Shown in pieces: positions 4,797-31,034 of a stretch of 64,000 nt of DNA. The stretch is taken from assembly GCF_002374315.1 (NCBI RefSeq), contig NZ_NWUX01000006.1:127947-191946 (forward strand). The letters are read 5' to 3'. Both the position numbers and the translations under genes were made by a program. The notes below the pieces were generated by a model, which saw only the letters and a list, made by a program, of their open reading frames with translations, did no database searches and had not been told where the DNA came from. Each line of letters opens with the position of its first letter. Position 1 is the stretch's first letter. This DNA comes from Vreelandella nigrificans (GTDB lineage Bacteria > Pseudomonadota > Gammaproteobacteria > Pseudomonadales > Halomonadaceae).

Positions 4797-6176
4797 GTGA
4801 CTAGCCAACTGAACCATCTACCCAGCGCAAAAGAGGTCGGCACTTACGACCCGCAGACGCTGGAAAGCAACTTTAGTGATCTTCACCCACCGCTAACCCA
4901 GCGCCAGGCGATGATCGAAAGCCAGCGCTGCCTTTACTGCTTTGATGCGCCCTGTGTGGAGGCTTGCCCGTCGGATATTGATATTCCTAGCTTTATTCGC
5001 CAAATCAGCGAGAACAATATCAACGGCGCGGCGCAAACCATTCTGGAAGCCAATATCCTAGGTGGCAGCTGCGCCCGGGTGTGCCCCACCGAAATTCTCT
5101 GCGAACGCAGCTGTGTGCGTAATCACGATGCCGAGTGCCAGCCGGTACTAATCGGCCTGTTACAGCGCCACGCCACCGATAATATGCAGTTCGATAGCCA
5201 CCCGTTTAAACGCGCCGCCAGTACAGGCCGCCATATTGCCGTCGTCGGCGCTGGGCCCGCGGGGCTCTCCTGCGCTCACCGCCTGGCGATGCTGGGCCAT
5301 CAGGTAACGATTTTTGAAGCCGAGCAAAAACCCGGCGGGCTGAACGAATATGGTATTGCCCGCTATAAAATGACTGATGACTTCGCCCGCAAGGAAGTGG
5401 AATTCTTGCTTGAGATCGGAGGCATCGATATTCAGTACGCCCAGCGCCTGGGCGATAACCTGACTCTCGACACCCTGCGTCACAGGTACGACAGCGTTTT
5501 CTTGGGGTTGGGTCTCGGTGCCAGCCGCGCTTTGGGCCTCACTGGGGAGGATGCCCCAGGCCTCATGCCAGCAGTGGATTACATCAAAACCCTGCGCCAA
5601 GCCGATGACCTGGGCAGTTTGGCCGTGGCCAAGCGCTGCATTGTGATCGGTGCGGGCAATACCGCCATTGATATGGCCACCCAAATGGCGCGCTTGGGGG
5701 CGAGCGAGGTCACGCTGGTCTACCGCCGTGGTGTTGAGGCGATGTCCGCCACCGACCATGAGCAAGAGATCGCCAAAGCCAACGGCGTGCGTATGGTCAC
5801 CTGGGCGCAGCCCGACGATATTTTGCTGGATGCCCAAGGCCGTGTCGCAGGTATGCGCTTTGCCAAGACCGCCGATCAAGCAGGCAGATTAACCACCACT
5901 GGGGAAACTTTTGAAATTACCGCCGATGCCATTTTCACCGCTATCGGCCAGGGCTTTGAGAACGCAAGCCTAAGCGATGCTACTGCTGCCGAGCTCGCTC
6001 GCGATGGCGAGCGCATTCACGTCGATGAGATGTTCCAAACCTCACTGCCCAATGTGTACGCGGGCGGCGACTGTGTAAAACCGGGTCAAGACCTTACCGT
6101 TCAGGCCGTGCAGCACGGCAAACTGGCGGCTCACGCCATTCATCAAGCACTCGCCGCTAAGCAGGAGGCCGCATGA
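4797..6176 (+). CDS. preT: NAD-dependent dihydropyrimidine dehydrogenase subunit PreT (GltD-like; FAD/NAD binding plus 4Fe-4S)
   Basis: Cys clusters CLYCFDAPCVEACP and the GAGPAG dinucleotide motif; GTG start with gcggagg RBS; stop overlaps the next start (ATGA). Confidence 0.85.
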   Translation: MTSQLNHLPSAKEVGTYDPQTLESNFSDLHPPLTQRQAMIESQRCLYCFDAPCVEACPSDIDIPSFIRQISENNINGAAQTILEANILGGSCARVCPTEILCERSCVRNHDAECQPVLIGLLQRHATDNMQFDSHPFKRAASTGRHIAVVGAGPAGLSCAHRLAMLGHQVTIFEAEQKPGGLNEYGIARYKMTDDFARKEVEFLLEIGGIDIQYAQRLGDNLTLDTLRHRYDSVFLGLGLGASRALGLTGEDAPGLMPAVDYIKTLRQADDLGSLAVAKRCIVIGAGNTAIDMATQMARLGASEVTLVYRRGVEAMSATDHEQEIAKANGVRMVTWAQPDDILLDAQGRVAGMRFAKTADQAGRLTTTGETFEITADAIFTAIGQGFENASLSDATAAELARDGERIHVDEMFQTSLPNVYAGGDCVKPGQDLTVQAVQHGKLAAHAIHQALAAKQEAA

Positions 6177-7516
6177 ACACGACATTTTCCACTCCTCTCT
6201 CGTTTCCAGGGAAGAAAAATAGCGGCGACAGCGTGGTCAATGGCGTTGATCTGTCGGTGAATTTCGCCGGCATCAAAGCCCCCAATCCATTCTGGTTGGC
6301 CTCCGCCCCGCCCACCGATAAAGCCTACAACGTGGTACGCGCCTATGAAGCTGGCTGGGGCGGCGTGGTATGGAAAACCCTTGGCGAAGAGCCGCCTGCG
6401 GTGAATGTCTCCTCACGCTACTCGGCCCATTATGGCAAAAACCGCGAAGTGATCGGCTTTAACAATATCGAGCTGATTACCGACCGCTCGCTTGCGATCA
6501 ATCTTAAAGAGATCACCCAGGTGAAGAAGGATTGGCCTGATCGCGCGCTGATCGTGTCTATTATGGTGCCCTGCAACGAGGAAGCCTGGGCTTATATTCT
6601 TCCCTTAGTGGAAGCCACCGGCGCGGACGGTATCGAGCTAAACCTGGGCTGCCCCCACGGTATGCCAGAGCGCGGTATGGGTGCGGCGGTAGGCCAAAAC
6701 CCCGACCTTATCGAAAAAGTCACCTACTGGTGTAAAAAGCACTACTCCAAGCCAGTGATTGTAAAACTCACGCCCAATATCACCGATATTCGTGTCGGTG
6801 CCCAGGCGGCACTGCGGGGTGGTGCCGATGCAGTGTCGCTAATCAATACCATCAACTCGATCACCAGCATCGACTTGGACAATATGGTTGCCAAGCCCAC
6901 CGTGGGCCATCAAAGCACTCACGGCGGCTACTGCGGCAGCGCCGTTAAGCCTATCGCGATGAATATGGTGGCGGAAATTGCCCGTGACCCAGCGACGCCA
7001 ACACTGCCGATTTCCGGTATTGGTGGCATTTCCACCTGGAGGGATGCGGCGGAATTTATCGCACTCGGTTCCGGCAGCGTCCAGGTATGCACGGCGGCGA
7101 TGCTCAACGGTTTTCGCATTGTGGAGGAGATGAAAGATGGCCTCTCCCGCTGGATGGCGGAGAAGGGCTACGCCTCAATTGAGGCGTTTTCCCGCAAGGC
7201 GATACCGCAAACCACTGACTGGAAATACCTGGATATCAATTTCAAAACCATCGCCAAGATCGACCAGGATTTATGCATCGAGTGCGGTCGCTGCTATATC
7301 GCTTGCGAAGATACCTCTCACCAATCAATTGCCAAACTCACCGAGCAGGACGGAGCCCGCCGCTATGAGGTGATCGAAGAGGAGTGTGTCGGTTGCAATC
7401 TGTGTCAGATCACCTGCCCAGTAGAAAACTGCATCACCATGGTGCCCCAAGAGACCGGCAAACCCTTCCTAGCCTGGGATAACGACCCGCGTAACCCATT
7501 CCGGGTTGCCTCTTAA
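6173..7516 (+). CDS. preA: NAD-dependent dihydropyrimidine dehydrogenase subunit PreA (DHODH-like TIM barrel plus C-terminal 2x[4Fe-4S] ferredoxin)
   Basis: DHOD-like domain followed by CIECGRCYIACED...CVGCNLCQITCP ferredoxin motifs; translationally coupled to preT. Confidence 0.9.
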   Translation: MNTTFSTPLSFPGKKNSGDSVVNGVDLSVNFAGIKAPNPFWLASAPPTDKAYNVVRAYEAGWGGVVWKTLGEEPPAVNVSSRYSAHYGKNREVIGFNNIELITDRSLAINLKEITQVKKDWPDRALIVSIMVPCNEEAWAYILPLVEATGADGIELNLGCPHGMPERGMGAAVGQNPDLIEKVTYWCKKHYSKPVIVKLTPNITDIRVGAQAALRGGADAVSLINTINSITSIDLDNMVAKPTVGHQSTHGGYCGSAVKPIAMNMVAEIARDPATPTLPISGIGGISTWRDAAEFIALGSGSVQVCTAAMLNGFRIVEEMKDGLSRWMAEKGYASIEAFSRKAIPQTTDWKYLDINFKTIAKIDQDLCIECGRCYIACEDTSHQSIAKLTEQDGARRYEVIEEECVGCNLCQITCPVENCITMVPQETGKPFLAWDNDPRNPFRVAS

Positions 7517-7542
7517 GCACCATTTCAACTCCCCCCAACCCG

Positions 7543-7575
7543 CCGCCCTCAACCTGTGAGGGCGGACGCATTTTA
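7543..7575 (+). terminator. Rho-independent terminator after preA
   Basis: Perfect 9-bp stem CCGCCCTCA-acctg-TGAGGGCGG followed by acgcaTTTT. Confidence 0.6.
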
Positions 7576-7676
7576 CGCAACATGCTGTTCCAGCGCTGAG
7601 TGGCGACACGCCACATTTTCCTTGAGAATATGAGAAAATATCGCATATACAATGTTTTCTCATAAAAGGAAGAGCA

Positions 7677-8540
7677 ATGAAGTTCGCTATTACTACCACC
7701 GCTATACTCTTAGCAACTGCAAGCGCCACCGCGAGCGCCGGCCAACGTATCGCCACTTTTGATTTAGGTAGTTTGGATACCCTTGACGCACTGGGTTTAA
7801 GCGAGCAAGTTGTCGGCGTGCCAAAAGCCAGCTTGCCAAACTACCTTGAGCAGTACGCGGAAGAGACATACACCAATATCGGAGGCCTACGCTCGCCGGA
7901 TATGGAAGCCCTTGGCGAAAGCGAGCCTACTCTGATTCTCTACACCGGACGTCAGGGCGACTGGGAAGAAGAGCTGGGCGAGATTGCCCCTCTGCTCAAC
8001 ACTAGCCTGCAAGGCGACGACTACCTCGCCGCTTTTGACACTAACGTTCGCGAGCTAGCCAGCCAGACAGGGGCAGAAGCTAAGGCAGAAGAAGCGCTTG
8101 AAATCCTACATAACGAGCTAGAAACTCAGCGCGAAGCCCTGAGTAACGCTCCCAGCACTCTGGTAGTGACGCATAACAGCGGCAATTTGATGCTAAACCA
8201 ACACCCGGTGGTTCACGACGTGCTGGGCGTAAAAGCACTTGAGATGCCGGAGAGTGTCACTTCAGAGACACGCGGCGAGCGCACCTTTACCCCGCTTTCT
8301 GCTGAAGCCATTGCTGAAATTGATCCAGAAATCGTGCTGGTTATTGACCGCAGCGCCGCCATTGGCGGTGAGCCAGCCGACACAGATACGCTAGCGCAAA
8401 CCCTGGCCGAAGCCGGTGCCGAGAACACGCAGGTCATTATGCTAACGCCCGCGTTGTGGTACCTCTCCGGTGGCGGCCTGCAGAGCCTTGCGCTTCAGGT
8501 TGAAGAAATCTCGGCGGCACTGAGCTCACCACATAACTAA
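7677..8540 (+). CDS. Periplasmic substrate-binding protein, class III (Peripla_BP_2 / siderophore-B12 type); orphan, no adjacent permease or ATPase
   Basis: Signal peptide MKFAITTTAILLATASATASA; layout ATFDLGSLDTLDALGL...VVGV...PTLILYTG...PEIVLVIDR typical of FecB-like binding proteins. Confidence 0.5.
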   Translation: MKFAITTTAILLATASATASAGQRIATFDLGSLDTLDALGLSEQVVGVPKASLPNYLEQYAEETYTNIGGLRSPDMEALGESEPTLILYTGRQGDWEEELGEIAPLLNTSLQGDDYLAAFDTNVRELASQTGAEAKAEEALEILHNELETQREALSNAPSTLVVTHNSGNLMLNQHPVVHDVLGVKALEMPESVTSETRGERTFTPLSAEAIAEIDPEIVLVIDRSAAIGGEPADTDTLAQTLAEAGAENTQVIMLTPALWYLSGGGLQSLALQVEEISAALSSPHN

Positions 8541-21058: not shown

Positions 21059-21661
21059 ATGGCCAACGACTTTATCGCCCCTGATGGGCTCCCCCGCTGC
21101 CAGTGGTGCGGCGGTGCGGCGGAATTTCTGCCCTACCATGATAACGAGTGGGGTTTCCCGGTAGACGATGATCAGAGGCTGTTCGAGAAGCTCTGCTTGG
21201 AGAGCTTTCAATCAGGCTTAAGCTGGCGCACCATTCTCAATAAACGCGAGAACTTTCGCGCTGCTTTTCACCACTTCGATTTCCACCAAGTCGCTCTCTT
21301 TAGCGAAGAGGATGTGCAGCGCTTGCTTCAAGATGCAGGCATTATTCGCCACCGAGGAAAAATCGAAGCGACTATCAACAACGCCCAACGTGCAAAGGAG
21401 ATGGTCGAGCAGGAAGGCTCGCTGGCGGCGTTCTTCTGGCGCTATGAGCCTACCGAATCAGCAACGCCACAAACTCAGACTACCTCGCCCGAATCCATCG
21501 CCCTTGCCAAGGAGTTAAAAAAACGTGGCTGGAAATTTTTCGGCCCCACCACCGCTTTTGCCTTTATGCAGGCCATGGGGTTGCTCAACGACCACTCGCT
21601 AAATTGCGTTACGCGTCAAAGGGTAGAACAAGCGCGGCAGCAGTTTCAGCGGCCCTATTAG
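21059..21661 (+). CDS. tag: DNA-3-methyladenine glycosylase I
   Basis: CQWCGG...YHDNEWGFP...LCLESFQSGLSWRTIL typical of Tag. Confidence 0.85.
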   Translation: MANDFIAPDGLPRCQWCGGAAEFLPYHDNEWGFPVDDDQRLFEKLCLESFQSGLSWRTILNKRENFRAAFHHFDFHQVALFSEEDVQRLLQDAGIIRHRGKIEATINNAQRAKEMVEQEGSLAAFFWRYEPTESATPQTQTTSPESIALAKELKKRGWKFFGPTTAFAFMQAMGLLNDHSLNCVTRQRVEQARQQFQRPY

Positions 21662-24714: not shown

Positions 24715-25840
24715 GTGATGCGGGTCAATGAATCTACCGGAGCACTAACTCGCCGTGCTGATGCCAACTACGGCTTTGACCGGCGCGTACAGTACACCGC
24801 CTGGGATACCACAGGTAGCGCCACTCTGGCAGGTATGCGCCACGACTTCACCATCGGTGTAGATCATGAGCGCCAGCAGGATTATCTGGCCGAGGTGTAT
24901 CGCGGCACAGCGGTGAGCGATCAGAATATATACGACATCAGTTACGGCGGCCTTAACCTGGATAGCAATAGCCTCAGATGAAGTGAGCACTACCGGGGTG
25001 TATGTGAGTGACCGCTGGCACCTTAACGAGCGCTGGATACTGGGGCTAGGTGGGCGTTATACCCACTATGAACAACTCGGCGGCCGCGGACAGAACTTCA
25101 TCACTGAGACCGATATTAGCGACAATATCTTCCTACCGTCGGTCAGCTTGCTGCATCGTCTAACCCCAGAGACCTCCGTTTACGCTAGCTACAGTGAGGC
25201 CTTTGTGCCCAATGGCGCCGACAGCGATACAGGGCAAACGCTAGACCCGGAGCATAGCAAGGGCAGTGAAATTGGGGTGAAGCATCTATGGAACGACCAA
25301 CTATCGCTAGCCGTTGCACTATTTGATATCCGCAAAGAGAATATTGCAGTCTCTGACAACGGTGTCACCCGCACAATAGGCGAAGCAGGCTCCCAGGGTG
25401 TGGAGCTAACGATCTCCGGTCAGTTAACCGATCAGTTATCGCTATTGGGGTCTTATGCTTATACCGACACTGAAGTGCTAAAAGACACCGCTGGCACTCA
25501 GGGCAACCGGCTCAGCAACTCCGCACGCCATACCGCCAACCTTTACTTAGCTCACGACCTAACCACTGCACCAGAACTGGGTAACTGGCGTGTGGGCGGC
25601 GGTGTACGCTACGTGGGTAAACGCGAAGGCGATGCTAACAACAGCTTTCAGCTAGACGCTTATACCGTCGCCGATGCGTTTATCGGCTGGGATACCCCCT
25701 GGCTGGGCGACAACCTGCACCTGCAGCTCAATGCCAAGAACCTATTTGATACTACTTACTACCCTTCAAGCGGCGGCAACACGCGGGTAGTAGTCGGCAA
25801 TCCACTGGAAGTTAGTCTTCAGGCGTCGGTGAGGTTTTAG
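24715..25840 (+). pseudogene. TonB-dependent receptor, C-terminal beta-barrel fragment lacking the plug and N-terminal half, with a frameshift near 24980
   Basis: Two ORFs in different frames (24715-24981, 24983-25840) both with TBDR barrel homology; terminal ...SLQASVRF with C-terminal Phe; no TonB box or plug. Confidence 0.7.
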
Positions 25841-25938: not shown

Positions 25939-28900
25939 TCAGTCAGTATTAACTCCCCCCGGTTTTACCTTCCCCCACTGGCCAACCCCTTCCGCAATTA
26001 AGCTTAACTGGCGAACCACCAAGGCACCGGTCTCTTCATTGCCACCGGTTAGTTGCCGACGTTGGAACTCACGTTTGATATCTGCCCAGCGCTGTTTTTC
26101 CTCTTCGCTTAAGGTGCCTCTCAGCTCTTTCAGCTTGAGCAGATTCTCTTCGGCCCCTTGGGTTAACAGCTGCGCTTCACCGACGTAATGATCATCAATG
26201 ATCGCTTCAAGCTCGTCGTCGCTGAGTATCGGCGACATCTTTTCCGCCAAGCGATTCATATTGCGGTAGCTGCCCTGTAGGCGGAATGACGGCTCCGTCC
26301 GGTACTCGTCAGCCTGGGCGCTGGAGGCGATATACTGCTGATTCACGCGCAGCACCACTTCACGTGCTTTAAACATACTCTTCAGCACCGCCACGATCTC
26401 TTCTCGCTCTGCGGCGCTATAGTCGTGTTCAAAGTCGGTGCTCGGCACCTCGCGGCCCATGGCGATATCAACAAAGCGGTAGAAATCGTCCATGCCCCGC
26501 GTGGCCAAAGAGGCGAGCACCGTATTGGCACTCATGGCGTTCTCAATGTAAGAGAGCGCAAACACCTCTTCCATGCCGCTTAATACATCACCCAGGTTAT
26601 AAACGTCGGCGCGGTTAGCCAGCATGTCGGGCACTTTGAACACGTCGCCGCTTTCGGTGTAAGGGTTACCCGCCATGGCGATACAGAAGCGCTTACCGCG
26701 CATATCGTAGGTTTTAGTACGCCCGTTCCAGATACCGTCTACCCGCCGACTGCCATCGCATAACGAGATAAATTTCTGCAAAAACTCAGGATGGGTATGC
26801 TGAATATCATCCAGATAGAGCATAACGTTGTTGCCCATCTCAAAGGCGAGGTTGAGCTTGATCAGCTCGGCCCGGGCGGTGGAATGAGTAGCAGCATCAG
26901 GATCCAGCGAGGTCACATCATGACCAAGGCTGGGGCAGTTAATCTTCATAAAGATCAGCCCCAAGCGGTTCGCCACATACTCCATTAGCGTGGTTTTACC
27001 GTAGCCAGGTGGCGAAATCATCATCAGCAAACCGCTGTTATCCGTTCGCCTTGTATCGCCCACCGTGCCCATCTGCTTAGCCAGGTTATCGCCAATAATG
27101 GGTAGGTAGCTTTCGGTAATCAGCTTGTTGCGCACAAAGGAGTTGAGCGGTTTAGGTAGGTACTCTTCTAGCCGCAACCGCTCCCGCTGCTCGCGTAAAA
27201 TCAGCTGACGACGCTCTTGCAGTGCCGTCCAGTCGCGTATAACGACCTGCTCATGGTGGCGCAGTCGCTCCTGAAAGTCATCGAGTTGAAACGTTAGCTC
27301 CTGCTGCTCAAGGCGCCCATGCTGCCCCAGCAAGCCAGTAACGGTGAAAGCTAGCTCGACATTATGGGGAGCGGTGCTTAACCGGTCAGCCGTGTTAAGC
27401 ATGGCAATCGCTTCAGGCAGGTAGTGCAGCAACGCCTCTTGCTTGGCTTGCCCCGCGTGGGCCTGTAGCCAGTGGGAAGTGATCACCCAGCGGGCGCCGG
27501 GATTACCCGCAACCACCGCCAAGGCTTCTTGAAAATGCGCGTAGTGGCCCTGCTGCTGCATGGAGGTGGTAAAGCTCTCTACCAGGCTGGCGGCGTACTG
27601 GGTGACCGGAAAACGCTCGCCCTCTTCAGCCAACTGGCGCACCAGAAAATCAGTGGCACTGCTTATCTCACTCACCGAGCAGTTGATCTGCTGGGCCGAT
27701 ACAAAGGCACCAAGCTGCGGCTGCACTTCCTGGATCAAGGCGTTTAACAGATCCTCGTTATTCATAATGCGGCACAGGATACCCGCCGATAGACAGCGGG
27801 TGCGCAGGTTGCGGGTCGCCTCTTCATCATGGATGCGGTCGGCCCAGAACAGCATCGCCAGCGCCCGGGACAGTGGCCCAAATCCTAGCAAACCAGCACT
27901 TTGGCGTGCTGGCCATAGAGTGCGTACGATGTGCGCAGCATCGTGATCGTGGATACCTTTTTCGTAGCTTTCGCGATAGCGCGGCGAGGCAAAATTGGCA
28001 ATCTGCCGCTGAAGCTCGCTGAAATCTTCGACATTAACTGGCTTGGCACCGGGCTTCGCCAACTCGTCCATAAAACGATAGGCAAGGTACTCAGCGCGAT
28101 AAACAGTGGGGCTTTCGGAAGGCAGCAGCATTCCCCAGTAATCTTGCAGTTCGGTCAGCCGCTCATCTTCCAACGGCTCGTAATACTGGGTGCCCGTCAG
28201 GTGCAGCATGATGCGCTCTTGGCGCGGCACCAGGGTTAAATCGAGATGCTGCTGGTTGACGCTGAAGCGGTGGCGCGGCCCTAAGCGAATAACATCGCCA
28301 CCGGACTCATAGATATCGGAGCGGTCGCGCACGCTACGCATGGCAGCATCTTGGGAGGAGCGTAGACGCCCGGCGATATCATCCGCCTCAAGGTTACCGC
28401 CCATTTCGCGTAGCTCATCGATCATGCTACGCACTTTACCTACCATGGCATCCGCCGCGAAGAAGCTATGTAGCTCTTCCAGCGTTTCAAAGCGTTCCGT
28501 GCGCCGCTCCACATTGGCCAGGATTCTCTGACTGGCGTCGGTTAGAGTGGAGACCCGGCGTTGACGTTCATCCTGCAACTGCTGGCGACGTGCTTCGATG
28601 CTTTCATGGGCACTTTCACGCTGCTCAAGGATAGTGGTCAAAAATTCATCAAATTCGCCGAACTGACTCTCCAACTCCTGGAGTTGGTCGAGTATGCGGG
28701 TCATTAACTGATCGCAGTCGTCGGGTTCCCGCAGCGCACCCACGCCGTTAGCCAAGCTCTGCTCAAACAGCCGAATCTGGGCCGCAAACTGCGCCTGGGC
28801 TTCTGCGCTCCCCTGCTCTCTTAAACGGATCTCAGCCTCGGAGCGCTGCTGGTTGATCGAGGCATAGATACTGGAGATATTCTCGGTAATCCGCGTCTGT

Positions 28901-30876
28901 TCGATGGCATCGCCGCCGGACATTGACGATAGCAGCCCTTGGATCATATCCAGGCCCGCAGTCAATTCGCGATAGCGCCCTACGCACTCTGCCAACTGCT
29001 GGCGATTTTCCGCCTCACCTACCTGCTCTTTTAGTGCTGCCAGGGTTTCCCGGTAGCCGTCCAAGGCTTCAGGTTGAGCAAGAAAGCTGAAGGTCTGCTG
29101 GGTAAGCGACTGCTCCGCTTTATCCAGCGCTTGTTCCAACGCCTGCAAGCGCTCTTCATCCAGGTAGCGGCGCTCGCGTAGCGCCATTAGCCGCCCACGA
29201 TGGTCGCGTAGGTGTTTCAGGTAGGTGACGAATAGGTCGGGGGTTTTCCAACTGCTCGGCTTTAGCTCCCTCAGCAGCGCCGTCTGCTGTTGCTCAACCT
29301 CGTCTAGCGCTTGGGCAGTCTGGGCACGAATCGCCTGAACTTTCTCATACTCATCGAGCATCAGCTCAGCGGTGTGCTTTAGCTGTTCAAGCGCGGCATG
29401 AATGGTTTGAAAGTCAGCTTCACCAATCCAGTGGAACTGGTTCAGCGTGCGGTCGACCCGACGAATAATAGCGTTAAAGTGCCGCTCAGATGCCTGCTGC
29501 TCGTTAGCGAGCTGCACAATGCTATTGAGCTCGGCAATGCCACGCACCAGATCAGGGTTGCCGATTCGGCCTAGTGGCGTGTCGTTACGCACCGCATCCT
29601 GGGCATGAAAACGCTCCGACATAAAGGGCGTTGCCCATACCTGGATGGGGTGAACCAGCGTTGGCTCGTCTTCGGCATAAAAAATCGCCAGGTGGCCGCT
29701 TTCAAGTATCGCCGCACCATGCCCCACCATAGGGGTATCGACCTGCTTGCGGATCAAATTATAACGGTAAAGCACCACCTGCCCAGTTTGCGGCGCGTAG
29801 AAGATATACAGAACATCTTCTCCGTTTGGCGAGCGCACCATGCGCTTGAAACGCAGGTCTTCCTCGGGTACTTCGTAGGTGGTCAACTCACCGGTATTTA
29901 AATAGTATCCTGAAGGGAAAATCAGGCCGTGGTTTTCCGGCAGCTCAACCACCGAGCCCGCCATGGCATCAACACGTTTAACGTGCTGCTCGGCACGATT
30001 AAAAACATAGTAGCGCCACTGTTTCTCGTTGAAGGGCAAAATGCGGATCAGCACCACCGCGCCAAGATCAGCATATTCAAAGGTGGCATCATCCAGCGAC
30101 TGAGAGTCAGACTCTACAGGGTCGGTAAAGATACCCTCGCCGCTGCTGGTGTTGTTCTCAATCTTGAAGGTAATGTTGCCGCGCAGGTTATCAACGAAGA
30201 CGGTATCAAGGATATTCAAATGGGGGGCGCGGCCCTGCTCTTGCATATCCCGGCCTGCTGTCTGCCAGGGGAAAGCGAAGCGGTCAGGAAAGGTCAGGTC
30301 GCGCTCACCGCGGTTATCGATATAGCGGCTCACCTCGCCGCTGGCGGCTAATTCCCAACGGAAAACGCGCAGGTCGCTTAGCTTTTCACCTATTTGAAAA
30401 GCAATCAGCAGTTTGTTGTTAAGGGTGACCAGTTGAACCAGCGTGGCATGACTGTAGTATTTCTGGAGTTCTTTGAAATCTTGAACAAAGCGGCTCTCGG
30501 TGAGAAAGCTATCCGCCATTGGCGCTTCGCTTAACTCAAGCCCCTCTTCATCATCTTTAAGGTAGTAGAGCGCAAAGATATCGGTCGCTTCTAATGCTTT
30601 ACGCAGCCCCAACTGCACATTGAAGCCAAACAGAATTTGCTCGCCAATGCGTACCATATCGCGAGCAATGGCGTTATTTTCGGTGCGTACCCGGGCCCTG
30701 CCCAGCAACGACATGCTACTGCTACCGAAAACCTCAGCTCGGGCTTCGTTCAGTTTACCGATCGACGCGCCCAGTTCACCGCCTTGGGTTCTCAGCCGCC
30801 GCTGAATCGTCTCGAATGCGGTGCTTTCTCTGACAATGTTTTCAACCGAAGAGTGCTCCTTCGACATAGTGTTCAT
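25939..30876 (-). CDS. Giant (1645 aa) multidomain protein of unknown function: beta-rich N-terminal domain, ~450-aa coiled-coil region, helical region, then a MoxR/AAA_5-like AAA+ ATPase near the C-terminus
   Basis: Single uninterrupted ORF; Walker A ISPPGYGKTTL (~nt 26988-27012), Walker B VMLYLDDIQ, AAA_5-like CIAMAGNPYTESG...VPDMLANRADVYNL; co-oriented with and 158 bp downstream of yqiK; the second ATG at 30867 has the better RBS. Confidence 0.8.
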   Translation of the reverse strand: MNTMSKEHSSVENIVRESTAFETIQRRLRTQGGELGASIGKLNEARAEVFGSSSMSLLGRARVRTENNAIARDMVRIGEQILFGFNVQLGLRKALEATDIFALYYLKDDEEGLELSEAPMADSFLTESRFVQDFKELQKYYSHATLVQLVTLNNKLLIAFQIGEKLSDLRVFRWELAASGEVSRYIDNRGERDLTFPDRFAFPWQTAGRDMQEQGRAPHLNILDTVFVDNLRGNITFKIENNTSSGEGIFTDPVESDSQSLDDATFEYADLGAVVLIRILPFNEKQWRYYVFNRAEQHVKRVDAMAGSVVELPENHGLIFPSGYYLNTGELTTYEVPEEDLRFKRMVRSPNGEDVLYIFYAPQTGQVVLYRYNLIRKQVDTPMVGHGAAILESGHLAIFYAEDEPTLVHPIQVWATPFMSERFHAQDAVRNDTPLGRIGNPDLVRGIAELNSIVQLANEQQASERHFNAIIRRVDRTLNQFHWIGEADFQTIHAALEQLKHTAELMLDEYEKVQAIRAQTAQALDEVEQQQTALLRELKPSSWKTPDLFVTYLKHLRDHRGRLMALRERRYLDEERLQALEQALDKAEQSLTQQTFSFLAQPEALDGYRETLAALKEQVGEAENRQQLAECVGRYRELTAGLDMIQGLLSSMSGGDAIEQTRITENISSIYASINQQRSEAEIRLREQGSAEAQAQFAAQIRLFEQSLANGVGALREPDDCDQLMTRILDQLQELESQFGEFDEFLTTILEQRESAHESIEARRQQLQDERQRRVSTLTDASQRILANVERRTERFETLEELHSFFAADAMVGKVRSMIDELREMGGNLEADDIAGRLRSSQDAAMRSVRDRSDIYESGGDVIRLGPRHRFSVNQQHLDLTLVPRQERIMLHLTGTQYYEPLEDERLTELQDYWGMLLPSESPTVYRAEYLAYRFMDELAKPGAKPVNVEDFSELQRQIANFASPRYRESYEKGIHDHDAAHIVRTLWPARQSAGLLGFGPLSRALAMLFWADRIHDEEATRNLRTRCLSAGILCRIMNNEDLLNALIQEVQPQLGAFVSAQQINCSVSEISSATDFLVRQLAEEGERFPVTQYAASLVESFTTSMQQQGHYAHFQEALAVVAGNPGARWVITSHWLQAHAGQAKQEALLHYLPEAIAMLNTADRLSTAPHNVELAFTVTGLLGQHGRLEQQELTFQLDDFQERLRHHEQVVIRDWTALQERRQLILREQRERLRLEEYLPKPLNSFVRNKLITESYLPIIGDNLAKQMGTVGDTRRTDNSGLLMMISPPGYGKTTLMEYVANRLGLIFMKINCPSLGHDVTSLDPDAATHSTARAELIKLNLAFEMGNNVMLYLDDIQHTHPEFLQKFISLCDGSRRVDGIWNGRTKTYDMRGKRFCIAMAGNPYTESGDVFKVPDMLANRADVYNLGDVLSGMEEVFALSYIENAMSANTVLASLATRGMDDFYRFVDIAMGREVPSTDFEHDYSAAEREEIVAVLKSMFKAREVVLRVNQQYIASSAQADEYRTEPSFRLQGSYRNMNRLAEKMSPILSDDELEAIIDDHYVGEAQLLTQGAEENLLKLKELRGTLSEEEKQRWADIKREFQRRQLTGGNEETGALVVRQLSLIAEGVGQWGKVKPGGVNTD

Positions 30877-30904
30877 CCTGAAAAAGTGCTCACTTGAAAT
30901 AGCA

Positions 30905-30935
30905 AAGACCGCAATTGGGTGACAGTTGCGGTCTT
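30905..30935. other. Stem-loop in the yqiK-to-ATPase intergenic spacer
   Basis: AAGACCGCAA-N11-TTGCGGTCTT perfect 10-bp stem. Confidence 0.4.
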
Positions 30936-31034
30936 AGGCTTTTACGAAAACTGCCTGGGTAGGTCATCGGCCGCTTGGCGCGATACTACCGGCAAGGCTG
31001 GGGCAGTTCCCACGGTAGAGAGCCGCCCTATCCT

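Follow-up and report, generated by a model that had tools for sequence, protein, structure and literature searches.

The stretch of DNA analyzed here, referred to as the window, comprises 64,000 nucleotides (nt) of Vreelandella nigrificans contig NZ_NWUX01000006.1 and carries a giant open reading frame (ORF) whose product bears the database name 'DNA repair ATPase'. The giant ORF is the last of three co-directional genes and follows a gene for a protein with three transmembrane (TM) segments and a gene for a flotillin-like protein (Table 1). To compare this arrangement with other genomes, the ORFs of 85 loci were clustered and then searched with hidden Markov models built from the clusters. 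A flotillin-like gene was found upstream of the giant gene and on the same strand in 82 of the 85 loci, the other three being contig ends, and the flotillin-like gene was in turn preceded by a 3-TM YqiJ-like gene in 78. This linkage, which the first-pass annotation of the sequence did not include, is the most informative fact about the giant gene.

The giant ORF consists of one uninterrupted reading frame of 1645 codons. Its product is 98% identical over the full length to proteins from Halomonas/Vreelandella (titanicae-like genomes) and collinear over 99–100% of its length with more than 100 homologs at 49–98% identity; those other than the Halomonas/Vreelandella proteins, more than a hundred in number and of 1640–1835 amino acids (aa), share 49–89%. 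Because of this full-length collinearity, frameshifts, a chimera or fused genes are excluded. The concern that several genes had been joined through sequencing errors, which the first-pass annotation had itself raised, can thus practically be dismissed, given that hundreds of independent sequences of 1600–1930 aa, from isolates as well as metagenomes, are collinear from end to end. In a hydropathy analysis the giant protein contained no hydrophobic segment, and hence no predicted membrane segment; both partner proteins have such segments. A megablast search of E. coli genomes returned no match.

Table 1. Features of the three-gene cassette, with positions counted from the first nucleotide of the window
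Feature	Position	Strand	Remarks
First cassette gene, 210 aa	32990..33622	-	three hydrophobic segments, C-terminal part soluble; YqiJ/YuaF (NfeD-type)-like
Flotillin-like gene, 649 aa	31035..32984	-	one N-terminal TM segment, SPFH/Band_7 at aa 39-187, E/A/R-rich segment of ~370 aa, C-terminal region
Hairpin (GACCGCAA...TTGCGGTC) and U-rich tail	30897..30933	-	8-bp GC-rich hairpin at 30907-30933, tail to 30897
Giant ORF	25939..30876	-	1645 aa and stop; DUF3686 / DUF7902 / AAA+; database name 'DNA repair ATPase'
N-terminal segment	30727..30876	-	two helices (aa 5-50) in the AlphaFold model; helical-bundle matches
Beta-rich domain, aa 56-415	29632..30711	-	~29 strands; divergent beta-propeller-like fold (predicted); core of DUF3686
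Central helical, heptad-periodic region, aa 421-880	28237..29616	-	length almost fixed across phyla (440-468 aa)
DUF7902 (Pfam), aa 603-687	28816..29070	-	within the central helical region; E 3e-18
Small beta element (GGDVIRLGPRHRFSVN), then all-helical domain, aa 881-1250	27127..28236	-	from the model, pLDDT about 90
AAA+ alpha/beta core, MoxR-like, aa 1251-1430	26587..27126	-	
Walker A, ISPPGYGKTTL, aa 1287-1297	26986..27018	-	SPPGYGKTT nearly invariant among family members
Walker B, VMLYLDDIQ, aa 1351-1359	26800..26826	-	DD, not DE, kept across the family
Beta-hairpin between Walker B and sensor 1, aa 1378-1391	26704..26745	-	DSSP strands 498-503 and 506-511 of the model
Sensor-1 strand and next helix, aa 1398-1428, AMAGNPYTESG...PDMLANRAD	26593..26685	-	motifs, conservation and model
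Lid and C-terminal helical region, aa 1431-1645	25942..26586	-	includes the nearly invariant LQGSYRNMN

Domain anatomy and class of the giant ATPase

Structure models were available for aa 1-500 and aa 881-1645 of the giant protein, and both were confident: the first, an AlphaFold2 model built on 54 sequences, reached a mean predicted local distance difference test score (pLDDT) of 89.3 and a predicted template modeling score of 0.87, and the second, also from AlphaFold, a pLDDT of 85.9. Together with Pfam, these models bore out the four-part architecture proposed in the first-pass annotation, namely a beta-rich N-terminal domain, a coiled coil, a helical region and a C-proximal ATPase. The Pfam family DUF3686, described as 'ATPase involved in DNA repair', covers aa 35-482 (E 1.6e-173, positions 2-448 of the 448 in the profile). 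In the first model the strands of the beta-rich domain lie between the N-terminal helices and further helices at aa 421-499, and the fold would correspond to a divergent, roughly 7-bladed propeller. The first-pass annotation had suggested a propeller or lectin-like module at aa ~150-440, quoting the motifs VLYIFYAPQTGQVVLYRYN (aa 355-373) and GHLAIFYAEDEPTLVHP (aa 394-410); the beta-rich, propeller-like character held, while in the model the block is larger than had been proposed.

The central region is rich in L, E, R, A and Q, and its hydrophobic residues recur with a 3.5-residue periodicity that is 3–11 times background at aa 435-600 and 617-770 and no higher than background around aa 590-615 and past ~aa 770. 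As judged from this pattern, 'coiled coil' is a reasonable if tentative label for aa 421-880, although the continuous coiled coil of ~450 aa (aa ~450-900) envisaged in the first-pass annotation survives only in part: helices at aa 421-499 and the two periodic stretches agree with it, the two aperiodic ones do not. A sequence search of the PDB with aa 421-880 gave no match. In 81 loci from distant phyla (among L001-L084), the central helical segment (aa ~415-880) measured 440–468 aa, with a median of 444, and because its length is almost fixed across such distances, it suggests a defined folded stalk and not a floppy linker. The following aa 881-1250 matched neither Pfam families nor PDB sequences; in the second model, aa 927-1235 are mostly helical, and a long helix at aa 1198-1234 runs into the ATPase.

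The P-loop NTPase fold expected by the first-pass annotation is present as a single, C-proximal copy, the second model showing a canonical AAA+ alpha/beta core at aa 1281-1427 followed by a helical lid and tail. Every motif that had been quoted was found in its place, with Walker A at nt 26986-27018 compared with the earlier estimate of ~26988-27012, and with CIAMAGNPYTESG and VPDMLANRADVYNL at aa 1398-1410 and 1415-1428, respectively. The two strands of the hairpin that precedes sensor 1 span aa 1378-1383 and 1386-1391, and an invariant R1377 stands just before them. From the MoxR motif pattern, N1404 is presumed to be sensor 1 and the invariant R1422 the arginine finger, and R1538, within LQGSYRNMN, is presumed to be sensor 2. 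Walker A, Walker B with its DD, AMAGNPYTESG..PDMLANRAD and LQGSYRNMN are all nearly invariant among homologs of only 26–45% overall identity, and this conservation indicates that the ATPase is, as predicted from sequence, an active enzyme or motor.

The class of this ATPase was less evident from profile searches than from structure. Only PF00004 (AAA) passed its Pfam cut-off (aa 1285-1359, E 3e-7, 31.4 bits against 21.2), whereas AAA_5 (PF07728), although aligned over positions 2-125 of its 139, remained below threshold with 19.9 bits against 22; PF07728 is nevertheless listed for many homologs in precomputed Pfam lists. When the AAA+ module was compared with known structures, the best matches were the MoxR ATPases CbbQ and NorQ (PDB 6l1q and 9qh4), Foldseek placing CbbQ first, and the hairpin before sensor 1 is common to them and to the giant protein. 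Moreover, the residues after sensor 1 follow the pattern NP..E..G...P(D/E)..(N/D)R, which we take to be that of MoxR sequences. The modeled structure thus supports a placement in the MoxR class, in agreement with the AAA_5/MoxR-type call of the first-pass annotation in all but the Pfam scores. A placement in the classical AAA clade was rejected, because the PDB sequence search with the whole protein gave only a match of 40–70 residues in the P-loop/strand-2 stretch to classical AAA proteins such as Rix7, NVL and p97.

The module also departs from CbbQ and NorQ in several respects. Its identity to them is about 13–15%, a large insertion (about aa 1451-1536) interrupts the lid region, Walker B reads DD and, as noted above, AAA_5 stays below threshold. 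MoxR proteins have about 260–500 aa and a VWA partner, whereas here the module takes up aa 1251-1645 in a chain of 1645 aa, unaccompanied by a VWA domain. A conserved 18-residue segment (aa 1314-1331) is a candidate for the helix-2 insert of MoxR proteins, a beta-hairpin between strand 2 and helix 2; in the model it forms a short helix and a loop, not a hairpin. The resemblance to CbbQ and NorQ, which are the nearest solved structures, raises the alternative that the giant protein is a maturation chaperone of the MoxR type, inserting a cofactor or metal into an unrelated membrane enzyme, with the flotillin as a platform and the propeller in place of the VWA adaptor. According to PMC13036017 and PMC9976466, MoxR proteins act on specific targets through an adaptor domain, and PMC13036017 names a VWA-domain partner as the one with which MoxR ATPases normally operate. 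We consider this alternative rather unlikely, considering that the conserved gene clusters of the 85 loci comprise only flotillin-like, YqiJ-like, PspA, DUF2170, rhomboid and PLD proteins and no client enzyme, and that neither a VWA domain nor its MIDAS motif was found. A search of the giant protein against NCBIfam gave nothing useful.

The domain anatomy also bears on the database name. The source names, 'DNA repair ATPase' as well as 'ATPase involved in DNA repair', imply an enzyme of the SMC/SbcC/Rad50 type, whose DNA-acting ATPase elements are held apart by a long coiled coil, and the helical region does give weak matches to the SMC_prok_A (E 0.74) and LmuB (E about 1e-4) models. These matches are, however, confined to the helical region and far below threshold (7.4 bits for SMC_prok_A against a cut-off of 729), and the ATPase is a single contiguous, MoxR-like AAA+ domain and not a split ABC-type head. 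Moreover, no DNA-binding or nuclease domain was found in the giant protein, no nuclease partner gene of the SbcD/Mre11 kind is conserved in the 85 loci, and the invariant neighbors are membrane proteins. A role of this type is therefore very improbable, and the name has probably spread from compositional coiled-coil matches. A gene for a 3-methyladenine glycosylase (21059-21661, forward strand; Pfam Adenine_glyco, E 1e-68) does lie about 4 kb from the giant gene on the opposite strand. Unrelated genes part the two, the glycosylase is not among the clusters conserved in the 85 loci, and we see no link between it and the 'DNA repair' label.

Membrane-protein partners and breadth of the family

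The full-length flotillin-like protein had no Pfam match even at E=10, and Band_7 appeared (E 4e-12, aa 1-230) once the coiled coil, as which we read its E/A/R-rich segment, had been cut off. Masking of this kind may explain why the genes called at this position in loci L001-L004 carry no Pfam family in precomputed tables. For the 210-aa product of the first cassette gene, neither Pfam nor NCBIfam gave a match with the protein itself. Its relatives show sub-threshold matches to YqiJ_N and YqiJ_OB, one of them is named DUF1449, and on these grounds, together with topology and synteny, the protein appears to be YqiJ/YuaF-like.

The flotillin-like gene directly adjoins the giant gene in all loci in which both were found except L019 and L022, where unrelated genes are inserted. 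In L019 the insertion (6033-7933) consists of two tandem, nearly identical ORFs of about 306–311 aa that resemble, as judged by eye, transposases of the Rpn/PD-(D/E)XK type; that in L022 (4518-7959) holds several unrelated genes, including a pair resembling a nucleotidyltransferase/HepT toxin-antitoxin system. PspA-like and DUF2170-like genes are adjacent in 43 of the 85 loci, a PLD-like gene occurs in 16 and a rhomboid-like gene in 12.

The spacer between the flotillin-like and giant genes (30877-31034, reverse strand, 158 nt) folds more stably than shuffled sequences (z -3.36). The hairpin within it may, from its sequence, be a partial terminator that sets the ratio of scaffold to ATPase expression. 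Scans for sigma-70 promoters and for terminators performed no better than on shuffled sequences, and no sigma-54 site was found upstream of the cassette. A forward-strand ORF near the giant gene (24983-25840) matches only the C-terminal part of the TonB-dependent receptor barrel (positions 170-436 of the 436 in the profile) and is preceded, after a gap of only ~600 nt, by a PhzF-like gene; it is therefore probably the remnant of a truncated gene.

The first-pass annotation regarded so large a chain with a single AAA+ domain near its C-terminus as unusual, which did not hold, since the members of its family are normally built this way. A search with the N-terminal domain yielded 646 clusters at 50% identity, in which nearly all complete members have 1600–1930 aa, and at 90% identity a profile search yielded more than 5,000; when one genome was scanned per species, the family was placed in at least 585 species. 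Among the matches listed, and likewise among the 85 loci, are Gamma-, Beta-, Zeta- and Deltaproteobacteria, Myxococcota, Actinomycetota, Acidobacteriota and Clostridia, and the homologs carry the same Pfam set (DUF3686, DUF7902 and AAA) as the window protein. Most gammaproteobacterial members of 1745–1830 aa (for example P0113-P0232 and L019 7998-13265) bear a C-terminal extension of ~100 aa with the consensus ..NQPVPG..DKKL.IDLRTH..; neither the window protein, compared at 25939-26100, nor other members of ~1640 aa have it.

The same distribution, patchy yet spanning many phyla, could be expected of an anti-phage or conflict system, in which the propeller would sense an invader, the ATPase would act as a switch and the flotillin, PLD and rhomboid proteins would be membrane effectors. 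Conflict systems include large NTPases that bear propeller repeats and MoxR-type modules, PLD (HKD) and rhomboid genes join the cassette in some loci, and the insertions of L019 and L022 hold mobile or toxin-antitoxin-like genes. Against this, none of the three proteins had a real match in PADLOC, the giant protein yielding only the weak LmuB hit to its helical region. Propeller and ATPase are strongly conserved and not diversifying, the gene is present in many species of Marinobacter, Halomonas and Lysobacteraceae (Stenotrophomonas, Lysobacter, Luteimonas), metabolic and regulatory genes of an ordinary kind surround it in the window, and the recurring extra partners are the envelope-stress pair PspA/DUF2170. 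We therefore regard a defensive role as unlikely.

A comparative-genomics study of phage-shock-protein systems (PMC11237479, mSystems 2024) devotes one sentence to a protein with a beta-propeller, a coiled coil and an AAA ATPase domain, which sits in operons with CesT/Tir-PspA, YqiJ-YuaF and Band-7-flotillin genes. Its authors proposed a chaperone-like function in assembling sub-membrane complexes and in their dynamics, reported that shortened operons lacking the PspA pair are widespread and, in the supplement, showed the same gene order in Dokdonia. The domain order and the gene order (YqiJ-like, Band-7/flotillin, ATPase) are those of the window, whose protein we matched to that sentence by description and context and not by accession; the window differs in that its operon is the short one of three genes, with neither the PspA/DUF2170 pair nor PLD. 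The window protein is thus a further member of an already described, widespread family, and nothing else is new at this locus.

A proposed role at the flotillin scaffold and comparison with known systems

Because the family is always encoded after a flotillin-like scaffold gene, wherever upstream sequence exists, we favor a function in remodeling membrane assemblies. With a probability of roughly 60%, we propose that the giant protein is a cytoplasmic, ATP-driven remodeler that works on or with the flotillin scaffold and has a role in membrane stress, not in DNA repair. Within a conserved membrane module encoded by three genes it would serve as the ATPase subunit, alongside the YqiJ/YuaF-like 3-TM protein and the flotillin-like SPFH protein. 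Through its AAA+ domain it could oligomerize into a ring, as CbbQ and NorQ do, and it might dock at the cytoplasmic face of the flotillin assembly via the propeller and/or the stalk. ATP hydrolysis would then remodel the scaffold, or complexes held in it, within a membrane-stress response that in many genomes may also take in a PspA-like protein and its DUF2170 partner.

Several observations weigh against such a role. No VWA domain (MIDAS) was matched in the giant protein or its neighbors, nor is such a cluster conserved in the 85 loci. By reading of the sequence, there is no aromatic residue in the segment between strand 2 and helix 2, the site of the classical AAA pore loop, which makes the threading of a substrate doubtful. 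No match to the PspA/DUF2170 pair, which is of the phage-shock-protein type, to rhomboid or to PLD was found anywhere in the 64-kb window, but since PMC11237479 calls abbreviated operons common, the missing pair does not exclude membership of the family. No indexed paper mentions DUF3686 or PF12458, no study of the giant protein was found in the literature on flotillin and MoxR, and two SPFH papers make no mention of it. Finally, a model in which the stalk matches the flotillin coiled coil in length received no support, as the latter, at 333–442 aa, did not correlate with stalk length (Spearman 0.03).

In a more specific and more tentative form, which we regard as possible but doubtful, the giant protein might be a dedicated machine for the assembly or disassembly of flotillin cages, by analogy with Vps4 acting on ESCRT-III; the propeller would take hold of flotillin or YqiJ-like subunits, and how far the motor reaches would depend on the stalk. 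If so, no energy-dependent regulator of flotillin microdomains would have been known before it. We know of no description of an energy-consuming flotillin regulator. A family of giant proteins that stands next to one flotillin subtype wherever this can be tested, in many phyla, offers a direct genetic handle on the building, opening and recycling of flotillin/SPFH assemblies. The interest lies not in the window locus but in the family, which is a candidate for an energy-dependent partner of bacterial flotillins and also a case of widespread misannotation: for 'DNA repair ATPase', a name carried by thousands of database entries, we see no support, and membrane remodeling is the better working label.

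Among known systems, E. coli yqiJ-yqiK and B. subtilis yuaF-floT share order and topology with the first two cassette genes (PMC2636767). They are described there as two-gene operons, with no mention of a giant ATPase gene, and the YqiJ-like protein of the window reaches the Pfam YqiJ models weakly, through its relatives. The coupling of an SPFH scaffold to an AAA+ machine, both genetic and functional, has precedents in FtsH-HflK/C and in m-AAA-prohibitin. Their AAA+ partners are membrane-anchored proteases of the classical clade that are enclosed by the cage, whereas the giant protein is MoxR-like, comprises 1645 residues per chain and has neither a predicted membrane segment nor a protease domain. 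The likeness to these complexes is therefore one of working principle, and homology extends to the AAA+ fold and no further.

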